A stretch of 64,000 bases of DNA from Bryobacterales bacterium (GCA_963422375.2 OY729428.2:1344001-1408000), one strand, 5' to 3'; shown: positions 16,782-38,410, counted from the first letter of the stretch. Notes: generated from the sequence alone by a model not told the origin. Program-made: numbers and translations.

Positions 16782-16823
16782 CAGCGATTCTCAATTTGGG
16801 CATTTTGGGATTTCCAGAGTGTC
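16782..16823 (+). repeat. Orphan transposon left-end sequence (CAGCGATTC family)
   Basis: 39/42 nt identical to 36238-36279 and similar to 33341-33382. Confidence 0.75.
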
Positions 16824-31139: not shown

Positions 31140-32324
31140 CCCGGCGTTTGGGTCGGGTGTTCCGGCCCGCGATACCTGTTTGGCCGCGACTCGACTATCT
31201 CGCGTGGGCTGCCTCTCCTCCGTGGCGGCAGACCATCTCCCGGTCCAGCAAGCCACCTCGACCTGCAGCTGGCGGCGCTCGAATGATTCAAGCGACGCGG
31301 GGGCCTTGCTCTTGGCAAGAGCTCGAATTTGTCGATCGAACCCGCGAATCCGCCGGGCAAGCGCCACCTGCCTCATGCGTTGACCGTGCATGGCTCGGCG
31401 ACCATCGCGGATGCGGGCTTGAAGACTGATAGTCCGAGCTCGGTGGAAATGCAGTGTTGCGATCAGAGCTGCCGTAACAGGGTGGCACCGACAGGCTCAC
31501 CGGCAGCGAGTTCGCGCCAGGCGATTGCCTACCGTGGTTCGACGTGTGCCGAGCCTGCTCGGCAGGCGGGTCAGCGCGACAGAAGCATTGCTTGGCCCGT
31601 CCGGCGCACGGCGACTCCGACGAGAATACTGCCGGAGTGTGCCCTCTCCTGGATGACGGGTGGACCGGTCCGTATGTCAGCCGAATGGAGGGCTTACAGG
31701 AACCAGCTCCGACGTCCGCCACCTGAGACCGGATAGTCGCGCAGGACGCACCCCCGGACCGACGACGGAGGGACCCCCTCCCGCTGCACCTTCTCCTTCG
31801 GCCGCGACTCCTGCCGGAGGCTGCGGGCCCGCCGCCCTGGAAGACTCGACCGCGTTGCAGCGGCCTGAATTCGAGAAAATCCGAGAATCCGCACCCGGAC
31901 CGTTCGCTGATGGCCTCGGGCGTCGGAGAGAACTCATGTTGCACGGTCTCCCGGCATGGGCAGGTCGGCGTTGCGGTACTGCCGGCCTCGGAATACCCGC
32001 GGTCGAGAGATGCAAGGAAGCAAGCAACTCACGCAGAGCCCTAGTGTCGCAACGATATTCGCGTCCCTGACAAAGACTGCGGTCAGGACCGAGGATAGAA
32101 TCCGACAAGAAGGGAGAGCCGGACTCTGTGGGAAGCCTACGCCTGCCGTGCGACCGGTCCGACAGTCCCGCTCTGCGCGGCCAAATCCCAACGTCCGGGC
32201 AAGCTGCTGGCAACGCCCCGAGTGCCCCGGACTAATTGAGCGCCCGAGCCGAGACCTCGGCAATGGTCTGGGAACGGGTGCCGGAGTGTGGCCCTCCGTC
32301 GCCTGCGGTAGACTCGAGACAGCG

Positions 32325-33194
32325 ATGATCGATCCGCCGAAGCCCGCAAGCCCCGCCAAGCCCGCCAGGGTGGCAGAGCAAGCGGTGCCGGTCTCGGGGC
32401 TGATCGTTCCGCAGGGATCGCCGGAGGGTGCGGCCCGGGACCGCGGACGGGTCGCGAATCAGTCCGCTCCCGCCGAAATTGTCGACATGGATGAGCTGCG
32501 CAGTTCCGCGGCTGCTGCTGCCAGCGAGGGTCAACACGAAGCCCAAGCCAACCTGGAAGTCCGAATCCAAGAGAACCTGGATTCGTTTCAGACGGAGATC
32601 GAGAAGAAGATTGCAGTGGGCCATGCCGAGACCCGCAGGCTCCTTGACGCGCACGAGGAGGCGTGGGCCGCTCGGCACAACCAGCTACTGGACAAGGTCC
32701 ACTCTCTGCAGTCGGAGTATCGGACTAGTTTCGCCTCGTTACAGTCGGAAGTCCGAGACAAGATCGACTCGCACCAGTCCGAGATTCGAAGGGTGCTTGA
32801 TGAGCGCGAAAAGCGGTAGGACGCTCGCCACGACCAGCTTCAAGGCATGATCGAGTCACTCCGGTCGGCGACGGTAACTAATATCGATGCGCTGCGGTCG
32901 GAGATGAGAACGAGAATATCCGCGCTGGAGAACCGGATCAATGAGAGAGACAAGGTCTGGGATGCCCGCTACAATGCACTGCTAGCCGAGATTAGGTCCA
33001 GTCGCTGGGTTTTTAGCGTGGCCATGACCCTTGTCATGCTGCTGCTGGCCCTGATTGCGGCCGGGGTGTTGCCATTCTTTCGGGACGAGCCCGAGCGGCC
33101 AGCGCCGCCGCCCGTCGCCGCTGGCCAGTCGCAGGATCCAGCGTCGGAACTCGAACCCGGTCCCGAGAGAAGCGATCCTGATTCGGGGCCCTGA
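32325..33194 (+). pseudogene. Coiled-coil repeat protein with C-terminal TM anchor, in-frame TAG at 32817-32819
   Basis: ORFs ending 32819 and starting 32847 share a frame; repeats AWAARHNQL / KR*DARHDQL / VWDARYNAL. Confidence 0.65.
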
Positions 33195-33429
33195 CGCAGG
33201 TAGCGACAGCAATGGTCCTCGCCCCCGTCCTCGGTTCCGTTCGGAAGCCTGTAGGAAGACGGGGTGTCTGGCTTGCGCCGAGCGCCGGATGGTGACTGGT
33301 GCCGCCAGTGACGAATCGAGGGGAGATTCCATATGCGATCCAGCGATTCTAAATTCGCGCATTCCGGGATTGCCAGAGTGTCTTAGAAAGGTGTCGAAGG
33401 CAGGCAGGCACCTGACTCCTCCTAGCTCG

Positions 33430-34005
33430 ATGCGCGAGTTGGCGCGCGAGCCCGAGCATGTGCGGGGACGTTACGGGGACGGGGAATTCGGGCGCGGCTG
33501 CCTAATGGCGCTGCGCTTGGCTGAAGCGGGCGTCCGAGTGGAGCAGATCTACTACGGCGACGGCCGACCGCGGGACAGCCACGACGACATCATGACCCGG
33601 AAGGCCCACGCGGAGAGCTGCGACGGCCCGATCGCGGCCCTGCTCGAGGACCTGAAGGATCGCGGCATGCTCGACGAGACCTTGGTGATCGCGGGGAGCG
33701 AGTTCGGGCGCACGCCGGTGATCCGGAACTCGGGCACGGGGAAGGCGGGCCGCGGTCGAGACCGCAATCCTCCGGGGTATTCGGTGCTGCTGGCAGGCGG
33801 GGGGATCCGCCGCGGCCGGGCCTACGGCGCAACCGACGAATTCGGCTGCAAGGCAGCGGACCAGCCCGTCACGCCGCACGACTTGCACGCGACGGCGCTG
33901 CACCTGCTCGGCATCGACCATGCGAAGCTGACCTACCGCCATGGCGGACGGGACTATCGGCTGACAGACGTTCGCGGCACGGTGGTTCGCGACTGGCTCG
34001 CATAG
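33430..34005 (+). pseudogene. DUF1501 protein, C-terminal fragment
   Basis: GCLMALRLAEAGVR, LKDRGMLDETLV..SEFGRTP, YGATDEFG, HDLHATALHLLG; N-terminus missing, several conserved residues altered. Confidence 0.85.
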
Positions 34006-34122
34006 TCTCTCGGATTCAAGCATGGAGGGTTTTCCCAGGGAGTTCGGAAGGCTTTTGCGCCTCCGTCCGAGCTCGCGGGCCGAGTGCTGGAACAGCTGCA
34101 GGCCGGGGGGCAGGGAGTGATC

Positions 34123-35961
34123 ATGCCTGCACATGGCGGGGACCAGGCACGCACGGCGCTGCCGGCAGGCACGTTGCTCCATCACGGTGCGTACGCGGTG
34201 CGGGCCCAGCTGGGCCACGGCGGTTTCGGGATCGTCTACCGGGCGCTGCACCGTGAACTGCGGCTGGCGGTAGCGATCAAGGAGTACTTCCCGGTCGAGC
34301 TGGCCGTGCGCGAGGGCGGGACCGTCCATCCGAGGAGCGGCGCGCGCGGGGAGGATTTCGCGGACGGGCTGGAGCGCTTTCTCGGCGAGGCCCGTCGTCT
34401 GACCGAGTTCAAGGGCCTGTCGAGCATCGTGACTTGCCGGGACTTCTTCCGCGAGAACGGCACGGCGTACATCGTGATGGGCCACGAGGACGCCATGTCG
34501 CTGGGGGACCTGCTGGCGGCGCGGGAGGCGGCGGGCCAGCCGTTCGGCGAGGCCGACCTGCGGGCGGTGGTCCTGCCGCTGCTGGCAGGGCTGAGGAAGG
34601 TCCACGACGCCGGGGTGCTGCACCGGGACATCAAGCCGAGCAACATCCTGATCCGGCGGGATGCGGACCGGGAGGGCGACCGGCCGGTGCTGATCGATTT
34701 CGGAGCGGCGAAGCAGACGGTCGCGGGGCTGTCGCGGACGTACGCGCCGTACACGGAGGGGTACGCGGCGATCGAGCAAGTCGGGGAGGGCAAGCTAGGG
34801 CCGTGGACGGACCTCTACGCCCTCGGGGCGGTGATGTGGCGGATGGTGGCGGGGGGCGCGCCGGAGTCGGTGTCGCGGCTGCCGGCGAAGGTGGAGACGC
34901 GGACGAACGCGTACCTGCGGGGGGAGGCCGATCCCTTGCGCTCCGCGCGAGAGGTGGGATCCGGCCGCTTCTCGGAAAGGACACTCGAGGCGATTGACCG
35001 GTGCTTGGCGCTGCGGGACGCGGACCGGGTGCAGGACTGCGCGGATCTGGCGAGGCTCCTGCAAGTACCGAAACATGCCCCGGTGGCGCTGCGAAGTGAG
35101 GCGAAGCCGTCGGGGGCGGAATCGGATGAAGCGGAATCATCGACAGCTGCATCCGGTGAGAAGCCGCCTCCACGCCGGGTTACTCGATGGACGAGTGCCT
35201 CGCTGGCGGCGATGGTCGTCGCCGTCTCAATAGCTGCGGTCGTCTGGGTGGGGGACGTCAAGAATGGGGACGTCAAGAATGAGGTCACGAACAGCATCGG
35301 AATGCGGTTCGTGCTGGTGCGTGCGGGAAGCTTCCGGATGGGGTCGCCTCTCGGCGAGGATGGGCGGTTCCTTAACGAGCCCCTCCACGACGTGACGATC
35401 ACAAAGGACTTCTATCTCGGCAAGTACGAGGTGACCCAGCGGGAGTGGCGGGCCGTGATGGGGAACAACCCGTCTAGGTTCGCCGGGTGCGATGACTGCC
35501 CGGTAGAGAATGTGTCGTGGAACGATGCGACCGAGTTCGTCACCGAGCTGAACCAGCTGGAGAGAATCAATGCCTACCGTTTGCCGACGGAGGCGGAATG
35601 GGAGTACGCGGCGCGGGCCGGGACGGACGGGGCGCGATACCATTCCGCAATCGGAGCGGTCGCGTGGTACGCCCGAAACAGCGATGCCCGGACGCATCCG
35701 GTCGGAGGGAAAACGCCCAACGCTTGGGGTCTGCACGACATGCTGGGGAACGTGTGGGAGTGGGTGCAGGACTGGTACGGGTCCTACCCGAGCGGCGCTG
35801 CGACAGATCCGCGAGGCCCCGCTACGGGCTCCGGCCGGGTCCTTCGGGGCGGCAGCTGGAGCAACCATCCGCGGTACGGCCGGTCAGCGTACCGCTACGG
35901 GGTCAGCCCCGGCTACCGCTACAGCTACCTGGGCTTCCGCGTGCTGAGGACAGTGCCGTAA
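34123..35961 (+). CDS. Ser/Thr protein kinase-TM-FGE/SUMF1 (C-type lectin fold) protein; putative DGR target
   Basis: LGHGGFG, AIKE, HRDIKPSN, DFG, DLYALG; hydrophobic helix; NSIGMRFV, YEVTQ, YRLPTEAEWEYAAR, HDMLGNVWEW, RGGSW...LGFR. Confidence 0.92.
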   Translation: MPAHGGDQARTALPAGTLLHHGAYAVRAQLGHGGFGIVYRALHRELRLAVAIKEYFPVELAVREGGTVHPRSGARGEDFADGLERFLGEARRLTEFKGLSSIVTCRDFFRENGTAYIVMGHEDAMSLGDLLAAREAAGQPFGEADLRAVVLPLLAGLRKVHDAGVLHRDIKPSNILIRRDADREGDRPVLIDFGAAKQTVAGLSRTYAPYTEGYAAIEQVGEGKLGPWTDLYALGAVMWRMVAGGAPESVSRLPAKVETRTNAYLRGEADPLRSAREVGSGRFSERTLEAIDRCLALRDADRVQDCADLARLLQVPKHAPVALRSEAKPSGAESDEAESSTAASGEKPPPRRVTRWTSASLAAMVVAVSIAAVVWVGDVKNGDVKNEVTNSIGMRFVLVRAGSFRMGSPLGEDGRFLNEPLHDVTITKDFYLGKYEVTQREWRAVMGNNPSRFAGCDDCPVENVSWNDATEFVTELNQLERINAYRLPTEAEWEYAARAGTDGARYHSAIGAVAWYARNSDARTHPVGGKTPNAWGLHDMLGNVWEWVQDWYGSYPSGAATDPRGPATGSGRVLRGGSWSNHPRYGRSAYRYGVSPGYRYSYLGFRVLRTVP

Positions 35962-36237
35962 CCCTCTGCGCTCTTACCCTCCTGCCCTTTGCCAGAAGGC
36001 CTTGGAGACGCTGGCCGGGAGACGGGCGCGAAGCGGTCCGAATCGACCGGCCAGCCGGAACCAAGCCCGCACTCACGCACTCCCGCCGCGGAATCTCCTG
36101 GTGGCAGGTTCCTGCCGATGCTCCGTGGCGGGCCGACCGACGCCATTGCCGAAGGTTGATCTGCGGCTGTGCTGTCCGTCGCGAGTGCGACGCTGGCTTG
36201 ACGCTGCGGGGTGCCCGGCGCATTGTCGGTCAGGATC

Positions 36238-36333
36238 CAGCGATTCCAAACTTGGGCATTTTGGGATTTCCAGAGTGTCTGAGAAGAGTGTCGAAGGGAG
36301 TCTGGCGCAGGCAGGCACTTGACTTTTCCTAGC
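36238..36333 (+). repeat. Second internal copy of the element's left end
   Basis: Homologous to 33341-33426 from CAGCGATTC through GCAGGCAGGCAC..CCTAGC. Confidence 0.75.
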
Positions 36334-36340
36334 CGAATTC

Positions 36341-37860
36341 GTGAGCCGTCGTGCGTTCGCGAATGCACGGGATAGCGCACGGTCGGAAGCCGCGACGGAG
36401 GGGGTGATCACCCATCCGCACCATTCGCTGCGTGGTCGGTCGTACCCGCTCCACTTCCGGCACACGGTCAGAGGCGTGCGCATGCCGAGCTGCGTGGCGG
36501 GCGAGGCGCAGCTGGCCTCCATCCCGGCCGCCTGGACCAACTGCCGGGAGGTCGACGACCTCGAGCGAGCGTCGGCGGGATGCTCCCTGTTCCGGGCGGA
36601 CGACTTGGAAGCGCTGCGCGAGTTCGTCGACCTCCCGCTCGAAGGGGCGGAGCGTAACCAGAAATAATGGTGTTGCGTTGTCAGAATACTTTCCGCAACC
36701 CAGGCCTGATCAGGCGCGGAACCGCCCCCTAGGGAGGGAACCGGGGCGTGAGGCCTCGAAAGCGGCCGCGCGCACTGGATCTCTTGCGGCCGATCCGCGG
36801 ATTAACCAATGGAGCGTCATGACGGCCCCGAAATCTTCCGGCCCGCCCCTGCCCGGCGACAAGCGCGAGCGGCTCAAACGGGCTGGCACCCTCAATCCCC
36901 ATCCGGAGCGCGTGCGGGATCCGGCCCTTCGCGAGGGCGGCTTCTTCGACCCGCTCGACTTGTTGCAGGTGCGCTACGAGATGGTGCGCCTGGTGCGCCG
37001 TGGCTAGGTCACCCTGGCCGCGGCCGCGCAACGCTTCGGCGTCTCACGCGGGATCTGCTTCCGTGCCGTGAGGGCCTTTGCCGAATGCGGCCTGGCGGAC
37101 CTGGTGCCGCAAGTGCGGGGCCCGTGCGGACCGCACAAGGTGACGCCCGAGATCCTGCGCTTCGTGGCAGCCCACCGCGCCGAGCAGGGCGCGGTGGGGT
37201 CGCGCAAGCCGATGCCACTGATCCGCGACCGCTTCGGCGTGCAGCTGCATCCGCGTGGGCTGGAAAAGGCCTTGCAGCGAGCGAAAAGGGGAGTCCGGGA
37301 TAAGCGCGAGGGTGGCGGTCGAGGGGGACGGGGCGCGCTACGAACGCTGGCGCCGGCAGTGGCTCGAGGGGCGCGACAGCGTCGCGATCGCGAACGTGCG
37401 CTTGCACGGCCCGGCCCGGGCCGGCGGTCCTGGAGCAGGCCGGGGCCATGCTGCGCGAGCTGCCGGAAGAGCCCGGGGCCCGCCCGTGCCTGAGAGCGTG
37501 TCGCACATGGTACAAGCGCGGCACCTGGCGCGCGAGGCCGTCCTGTAGATGCGCCAGTCCTCGCTGCGACAGGACGAGCGAAACACCGAGAGCGGTCGGC
37601 GCCAGTACGAGCTGCGCCGGGAGGCGGTGGCCTTGGGCTGGCCGGAAGAGCGCATCCGCGTGATCGACGGGGACCAGGGCAAGTCGGGGGCGAGCAGCGA
37701 GCACCGCAGCGGGTTCCGCGACCTGATGGCGCGGGTGGCGGCCGGAGAGGTGGGCTTGGTGCTGAGCCTGGAGGTCTCGCGCCAGGCGCGGAACAGTGCC
37801 GACTGGCACCAACTGCTGCAGGTGGCCGCGCTGACCGACACGCTGATCCCGGAAGACCCG
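36341..37860 (+). pseudogene. Decayed y4bA-D-like module: DUF5372-like ORF, HTH ORF, large serine recombinase fragment
   Basis: ITHPHH..SIPAAWT..FRADDL; GTLNPHPERVRDP..FFDPLDLLQVRYEM (TAG at 37005); RQSS..NTES..QY..GKSG..RSGF..LEVSR..RNSADW (TAG at 37546), truncated. Confidence 0.75.
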
Positions 37861-38410
37861 CAGTGCTCGGTGCGGCGCGTCGACAGCGAGCACCGACCGC
37901 CGTACGTCCACACCATGGTCGCGGCCATCGAGGTGGCCGACGGCCACGGCACCGTCCCGCCGGTGATGCTCGTGTTCGTGCGCCCGTAGCAGGACGCGGC
38001 CGCGACCCGCGCCGACCTGAGCGAGGACGAGCGCAACCGGGACTGCGCGCAGCAACGCCGCCAAGCGCTGGATCGCCGCTCACGGCACTTGGCTGCATGC
38101 CTGCTGCCCCGTCCTGCCGGGCGACGCCCTGTACGGCTGCCAGCCGGTCTGCGAGGCCGCCGCAGCCGCCGGCATGGCTCGCACCCCCTTGATGGCCACA
38201 TCTAGAATCGCTGTATGCGATCACTCCAGGTCGGCTCGACAGGAGGTCGGCTAACGTTCGCGGCTTGACGTGTCCGGGAAGCCCTATTTCTCCCTGCGAG
38301 GCCCTGCGGCGATGAGGTCTAAGCAATTCGAGCGCAACGCGAACGATTTCGCCGGTGGGCTCGCAATATGTGATCGGGATGCGACCGTGGCGGCTGCTGA
38401 CGGTCGGGCA

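Follow-up and report, generated by a model that had tools for sequence, protein, structure and literature searches.

The window, by which we mean the whole 64,000-nucleotide stretch of Bryobacterales DNA analysed here (G000:C2:1344001-1408000 in the genome G000), carries on its plus strand (the strand, too, of the gene's parts and of the surrounding unit mapped below) a gene for 612 amino acids at 34123-35961, whose ATG start agrees with the gene call in the protein collection. The product opens with a Hanks-type Ser/Thr kinase domain (34192-35031; Pfam PF00069, 4e-31) in which the Gly loop, VAIK, HRD, and DFG motifs are all intact, passes through a predicted transmembrane (TM) helix (residues 359-377, 35197-35253; Kyte-Doolittle 19-mer mean of 2.28 against 1.25 for the runner-up, with basic residues before it), and ends in a CLec domain of the TvpA/FGE-like type (35308-35958; PF03781, 3e-47). 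Catalytic motifs, a single TM helix, and a predicted extracytoplasmic domain together fit a Hanks-type receptor kinase, probably oriented with the kinase inside and the CLec domain outside (N-in/C-out). The original prediction of a receptor kinase with an FGE-type tail is upheld in this layout by Pfam, TM prediction, and fold match.

The hallmark of formylglycine-generating enzymes (FGE) is a catalytic cysteine motif in a C-terminal loop. The variable region (VR) peptide of the window protein contains no cysteine and so lacks this motif, and both sequence and fold searches rank TvpA and PvdO above FGE. TvpA (2y3c) is the top PDB sequence match of the CLec domain (2e-41) and Foldseek rank 1 for its AlphaFold model (pLDDT 86.8; TM score 0.87). 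Outside its own genome the protein finds best matches of 52-59% and its CLec domain alone at most 64%; it forms a sequence cluster of 1, our searches found no close orthologue of the protein and no orthologue of the gene in other strains, and we found no sigma-70-like promoter in 33300-36400.

In diversity-generating retroelements (DGRs), the RT and Avd yield adenine-mutagenised cDNA copied from a template repeat (TR), and VRs are recognised through the IMH and 3' structure. The VR of the window gene lies at the C-terminus of the CLec domain (35827-35928), and the stretch homologous to a TR runs on to 35952. The original prediction had noted neither RT nor TR in the window and had expected a TR near RT and avd genes elsewhere; genome-wide searches place both outside the window, and BLAST with the VR returned an AAC-rich TR at G000:C2:2846136-2846011, on the same contig, 1.47 Mb from the gene and directly after an RT. 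Across the 126 bases compared (35827-35952), 15 of the 17 mismatches face TR adenines, of which there are 31 (hypergeometric p = 3e-9), with changes at codon positions 1 and 2; the pair thus differs almost solely at TR adenines. The two remaining mismatches are a synonymous one at 35886 and one at 35949, at the TR end, which differs from the TR in all three targets recognised in this genome. The codons proposed to be variable lie at 35860-35928, facing AAC, AAT, CAG, and AGG codons of the real TR, and the proposal that adenine-only changes suffice holds for all 12 amino-acid differences between VR and TR. None of these 12 residues is unreachable, against 2 of 13 in the VR of the target gene in the RT's own cassette, and on this count the window VR stands closer to the TR; the two VRs differ from each other at 15 bases, 12 of them at TR adenines. 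By a per-codon table of the TR that excludes the last two codons, 16 codons could encode up to ~2.7e16 protein variants. At the level of sequence, the 3' end of the window gene is shown to have been templated by this TR with adenine-specific changes.

Many FGE tails look similar where no DGR is active, as the original prediction had cautioned, and three non-target paralogues in the genome also show adenine bias against the TR (p from 5e-6 to 1e-3). Since they do, it is by the number of non-A mismatches, not by the p-value, that targets can be told from relatives. The window VR has 2 such mismatches, whereas the paralogues have 16, 19, and 22. Of the 95 TR positions that are not adenine, synonymous ones among them, the window VR matches 93 and the paralogues 73-79, which refutes an ordinary FGE-family tail resembling a VR by chance or through old ancestry and makes that explanation extremely improbable. 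A second caution, that the usual TGC codon reads GGC here, is right as a reading and fails as an objection, since the TR itself has GGC, as do all three targets; TGC is found in all three non-targets. These paralogues (C2 at 2.814, 2.815, and 2.364 Mb) are out as current targets, given their 16-22 non-A mismatches and the absence of a 3' element, and the changes of the true targets concentrate at TR adenines, as the proposed comparison of paralogues had anticipated. Import of a ready-made VR from another species is likewise ruled out: the window VR carries the non-A bases that set the G000 TR apart from the TRs of its congeners G017, G019, and G021.

The partner cassette spans G000:C2:2846011-2850784 in the order target (kinase-TM-CLec), HRDC (frameshifted), Avd, RT, and TR. 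Its RT has 337 residues and a YMDD motif and is 52% identical over its full length to a curated DGR RT from Prosthecochloris aestuarii; this nearest curated match is a clade 5B element. Avd scores 98.7 bits against NF033474 (cut-off 80) and also matches PF22296, giving the genome an RT together with a DGR accessory gene. The only other RT found (C1:1225019-1225693) was rejected as a partner: by sequence it is group II intron-like, and the TR search matched no AAC-rich repeat at that place. A mutasome cluster of imuA/imuB/dnaE2-like genes, identified by their translations alone, lies just downstream of the TR (G000:C2:2840093-2845201).

The three targets of this single TR are separated from it by 2 kb, 27.6 kb, and 1.47 Mb. 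The cassette target has 21 VR mismatches to the TR, 18 at A, and the third target, 27.6 kb away, has 20, of which 17 are at A. This third target (G000:C2:2818437-2820359) is a recent duplicate of the CLec domain of the cassette target; the two differ at 6 positions in the 126-base VR, all in the last 30 bases, and at 7 in the 671 bases upstream (Fisher p = 0.009), a pattern as would be expected from 3'-anchored homing after duplication. Adjoining it, at G000:C2:2812570-2817425, convergent kinase-TM-CLec and caspase(C14)-CLec genes with degenerate TR similarity are probably former targets.

Several features suggest that the cassette in G000 is partly decayed. The HRDC gene has a frameshift and a further stop, the Gly loop and DFG motif of the cassette kinase are changed, and the RT differs from those of two sister strains in a conserved motif. 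Because of this decay relative to the sister strains, present DGR activity may be low, and the hypervariable sensor of the original prediction is better described as one with hypervariable potential. In two sister-strain orthologues of the cassette target, the VRs are wholly different; setting aside a codon inserted in one of them, every change could have arisen from the G000 TR, so the DGR has been active within this species.

Candidates for the signals expected 3' of a VR are found at the window gene. The TR-homologous stretch ends in 24 constant bases (35929-35952) with a single fixed difference from the TR end (35949) that is common to all three targets; from this position, and from PMC4372165 in its accessible part, we infer an IMH role. 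The stop codon is followed by a pyrimidine-rich tract (35962-35994; 27 of 33 bases C or T), also present at true targets in G000 and in congeners; 1.8e-4 of genome 33-mers reach this content, for a stretch picked after inspection. Beyond it lies an imperfect hairpin (36001-36065) with a 9-bp stem (36010-36018/36047-36055) and an apical C-GAA-G (CGC-GAA-GCG, 36027-36035), so that the tract, stem, and loop of the original prediction are all present. The GAA loop sits in a 16-base stretch that is invariant across the three G000 targets, and the tract and C-GAA-G hairpin together occur at 3 of 3 true targets and 0 of 3 non-target paralogues.

The window hairpin is the weakest of the three, all of them long and imperfect: its folding z is modest (-0.09 for 35955-36075, -2.1 for 35990-36075, and -1.0 for another span), against -5.9 and -3.4 at the other two targets. 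Its geometry departs from the BPP-1-type hairpin, for which the available text of PMC3240598 gives a 7-10 bp stem, a GRNA tetraloop, and a distance of 4-34 bp from the VR; here the hairpin is interrupted, lies ~57 bp beyond the TR-homologous end, and has a 3-nt GAA loop, resembling the GRA triloops described 3' of VRs in the accessible part of PMC4372165. A universal GNA triloop is ruled out, as congener targets fold weakly or with other loops, and because those loops vary, the pyrimidine tract looks the more general signal. A profile built from 13 G017 targets scored weakly (4.2-8.2 bits) at the three true G000 targets and at none of the three non-targets. Across 34 loci that are related and not independent, pyrimidine content correlates weakly with the number of non-A mismatches (rho = -0.35, p = 0.04).

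The gene and its 3' signals lie within a 4,873-bp unit bounded by IS ends at 33341 and 38213, outside which stands a perfect 9-bp duplication (33332-33340 and 38214-38222; the 9-mer occurs 14 times in the genome, counting both strands). The mobile cassette of the original prediction is borne out by these inverted ends and the duplication. From left to right, the unit contains an outer left end with the terminal inverted repeat and ~85 bp of an ISNCY-like element (33341-33426); the 3' half of a DUF1501 gene, a passenger cut at the IS end (33436-34005; PF07394 profile positions 207-389 of 390); the kinase-CLec gene; a second left end from this family, lying further in and lacking any duplication to match (36238-36346); other mobile-element remnants, single-copy in the genome, comprising DUF5372 and a broken resolvase N-terminal domain (36341-37989; PF17342, 1e-8; PF00239, 1e-7); and an internal transposase fragment (37857-38177) with the right terminal inverted repeat (38180-38213). 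The family has no Pfam or NCBIfam match, and its ISNCY-like assignment comes from Atlas look-alikes. About 50 copies are present in the genome. For 18 of the 53 left ends examined, a partner end and a perfect 9-bp duplication go together, the window unit being the longest of these; 27 have a partner without a matching duplication, and 8 have no partner. IS-IS recombination is common here, given those 27. A further left end of the family at window position 16782 has no partner end within 6 kb.

In 16 or more of the 30 congeners, 48-322 bp separate the genes that flank the insertion, as against 7.27 kb in G000; the insertion is larger than the IS unit. Terminal inverted repeats of one family, a target duplication, and an empty site in congeners are what an IS-derived transposon leaves; no conspecific empty site was seen. 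The rest of the lineage-specific insertion (window 31140-33331) has two ORFs, at 31956-32819 and 32847-33194, without a Pfam match; paralogous DNA 69-77% identical occurs at C2:416 kb, close to a further IS copy, and at C3:463 kb. We infer that the IS unit carried the gene with its homing signals to this site. The ends would look the same if the cargo had travelled as a single unit or had recombined into an IS already resident here.

The IS unit bears on one account of the VR, in which the gene was formerly a cassette target, diversified in cis beside the DGR, until the IS unit took it elsewhere and homing ceased. The unit with its duplication would suit this history, as would dispersal of the kind proposed in the available text of PMC7517822, the genus-typical CLec subtype of the window gene, and the kinase-CLec genes that adjoin Avd and RT in the congener G007. 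Against it, nothing is left of HRDC or Avd beyond the hairpin (past 36068, identity to the cassette is 36 of 123 positions), no donor scar in the form of an orphan 5' half of the DUF1501 gene was found among 59 loci, and the homing signals travelled along, so that homing in trans would still have been open to the gene after the move. We consider this account unlikely.

The congeners provide a broader view of how targets and TRs are arranged. Of the 30 examined, 4 have the RT and 5 have Avd. In G017, where 7 regions and not the whole genome were examined under an analyst-set filter of at most 3 non-A mismatches, 13 CLec genes pass as targets of one TR, 2 beside it and 11 remote. Seven of the remote genes form an array 0.52-0.55 Mb from the TR (6 confirmed kinase-CLec genes and a seventh, short frame), and the 4 other targets accompany a second cassette, in which the RT is interrupted by a stop and no TR turned up. 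Pairwise identity among the G017 targets is 32% at TR-adenine sites, 96.5% at other sites (a value due in part to the filter), and 63% in the 5' flank. Since remote targets with such diverged flanks follow the TR, remote homing looks normal in the genus. At G017:C5:1.796-1.836 Mb, kinase-TM-CLec genes stand in tandem, each with its own 3' element and a different adenine-specific VR; this array, 0.5 Mb from the only intact RT found there, is a stronger case for a repertoire diversified in trans than the window itself. Other G017 targets bear ankyrin, trypsin, astacin, and PPC domains. Matches to the kinase family number 33 in G017, 12 in G007, and 8 in G043, with none at threshold in 21 of 30 congeners, and many congener copies match in the kinase part only, leaving their C-terminal domains different.

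We propose that the window gene is a remote target of the single DGR of this species and was probably homed in trans at least once. In this mechanism, the cassette RT and Avd would copy TR RNA with errors at adenines, and the mutagenised cDNA would replace the window VR, recognised via the IMH and 3' cis elements; the window locus would have received such cDNA one or more times, in addition to undergoing gene conversion with the cassette target, and the gene would owe its present site, homing signals included, to the IS unit. For trans diversification as originally predicted, the machinery has therefore been located, with TR, RT, and Avd 1.47 Mb away, while diversification at the window locus itself is no more than probable, since the VR also has a history in common with the cassette target through gene conversion and the reads showed no variation there.

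Evidence for gene conversion comes from a 79-bp tract identical to the cassette target (35755-35833). Its first 72 bases lie outside TR homology, where the three other paralogues are identical at 46-51 of 72, and the rest of the CLec N-part matches the cassette target at 64 of 144 residues; because identity reaches so far beyond the TR homology within a diverged domain, gene conversion has linked the two genes. The same footprint would be left if the VR had been diversified at the cassette target and passively copied to the window, where it would now be a frozen snapshot without homing. We regard such copying as the less probable history, with perhaps something over a quarter of the likelihood. 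It would explain why the derived residues common to the window VR and each of the three cassette alleles (4, 3, and 5) outnumber those that the alleles have in common with one another (1, 2, and 0), and it would suit the weaker window hairpin and the identical VR in sequencing run X3. Such sharing would be expected if the window preserves an earlier VR of the cassette, or if selection favoured the same residues in both; G017 pairs share a mean of 1.9 derived residues, and 8 of 78 pairs reach at least 4.

Three observations weigh against passive copying. The pyrimidine tract, the 16-base loop stretch, and the stem (with different pairs) are kept in the window gene despite 28% divergence of the downstream element from the cassette copy (78 of 109 positions identical). 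All 18 aligned CLec domains of G017 and G021 are of the window gene's subtype (N-part 60% identical, vs 43% for the cassette target), which makes it more likely that the VR module passed from the window subtype to the cassette target than the reverse. Finally, the remote targets of G017 track their TR in spite of diverged flanks.

The sequencing runs show no variation at the window locus. The read check covered 4 of 19 runs, and assembled contigs drop rare variants. In run X3 the VR contig, the TR, and the gene are identical to G000, with no variation seen at the window VR. Raw-read depth over the VR is almost none in X11, Hi-C raw reads give 7 partial reads, and X6, one of the small-share runs X6-X10, has no coverage. 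Run X5, which bears another organism label, agrees with the gene at every base as far as 35751 and shares its TR, with no contig over 35752-36230; its word share of 0.78 fits a gap there, perhaps a strain difference or a filter effect, and such a gap is no evidence by itself.

As to function, the protein would be a single-pass receptor Ser/Thr kinase: a variable ligand would bind its CLec tip in the periplasm, and activation of the cytoplasmic kinase would pass on the signal. The role we consider most likely is that of an anticipatory non-self sensor, in conflict or interaction, because of the caspase-CLec paralogue near the cassette and the conflict-sensor proposal made in the accessible part of PMC10907252. 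Tentatively, and with distinctly less confidence than for the window gene itself, a single TR may, in this acidobacterial genus, feed a genome-wide repertoire of single-pass receptor kinases, which new members would join by two routes that can be seen in G000: IS-bounded units that carry a target with its homing signals, and gene conversion of VR modules between different CLec scaffolds; such a repertoire would amount to antibody-like, actively re-diversified periplasmic sensors wired to Ser/Thr phosphorylation. The three targets at different distances from one TR offer a ready test of distance and of the 3' element needed, and with a hypervariable periplasmic domain on a Hanks kinase, phosphorylation could be read directly to find out what cellular sensors diversified by DGRs respond to.

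The components are all known already. A first DGR in Acidobacteria is ruled out, as acidobacterial DGRs are entered in the available supplement tables of Roux 2021. In the literature searched, which included few subscription journals, we found no published DGR target inside a unit with a target duplication, nor published gene conversion between paralogous DGR variable regions. TvpA, a DGR variable protein and surface lipoprotein, provides in 2y3c the closest solved structure to the window CLec domain, for a protein without the kinase or TM-receptor layout. Its DGR in Treponema denticola has an HRDC-containing architecture and up to seven non-adjacent targets, according to the accessible part of PMC5758913, in which targets more than 100 kb away are also catalogued for ten DGRs.

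The best RT match in the plasmid collection (the 52% full-length match) belongs to the plasmid DGR of P. aestuarii DSM 271 (NC_011061.1), entered in the available supplement of Wu et al. 2018 as architecture C1, TG-HRDC-AVD-RT-TR-TG, with CLec1, and as RT clade 5B in that of Dore et al. 2024. It resembles the G000 cassette in its target-HRDC-Avd-RT-TR order and FGE-type CLec1 targets. Its two adjacent targets are FGE-only, and no remote target or stem-loop is listed for it in the supplement entries at hand, whereas in G000 the targets are receptor kinases, two of which lie at a distance (27.6 kb and 1.47 Mb). For the clade-5 DGRs of Thiohalocapsa PB-PSB1, trans diversification of remote CLec targets with kinase, CHAT, and TIR domains has been inferred, transposons shape the loci, and one matching remote target (DGR 1) is without variation, as given in the available text of PMC10907252 (Dore et al. 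2024), where neither "target site duplication" nor Acidobacteria appears. Read-level variation was shown there; at the window, reads show an identical VR in X3.

The nearest parallel to the window gene lies in cyanobacteria, for which the available text of Vallota-Eastman et al. 2020 (PMC7517822) describes C-terminal CLec domains on Hanks kinases, 76 remote targets, and nearby transposases as the proposed means of dispersal. The window gene is alike in its CLec domain on a Hanks kinase and its distance from the cassette, in a Bryobacterales-type acidobacterium instead of a cyanobacterium. Most of the cyanobacterial targets are predicted to be cytosolic, and 4 cassette proteins and 9 remote ones have a predicted TM helix or signal peptide; the window protein is single-pass. 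Remote status was assigned there by a 50% identity threshold; the window VR agrees with its TR at 93 of 95 non-A sites. That published work infers transposon-driven dispersal of targets from the proximity of transposases, to which the window locus adds ends at sequence level: inverted repeats and a target duplication enclosing a target that still bears its homing signals. The locus is real and well supported, systems of its kind had been described before in cyanobacteria and purple sulfur bacteria, and its footprint of mobilisation is unusually clear.
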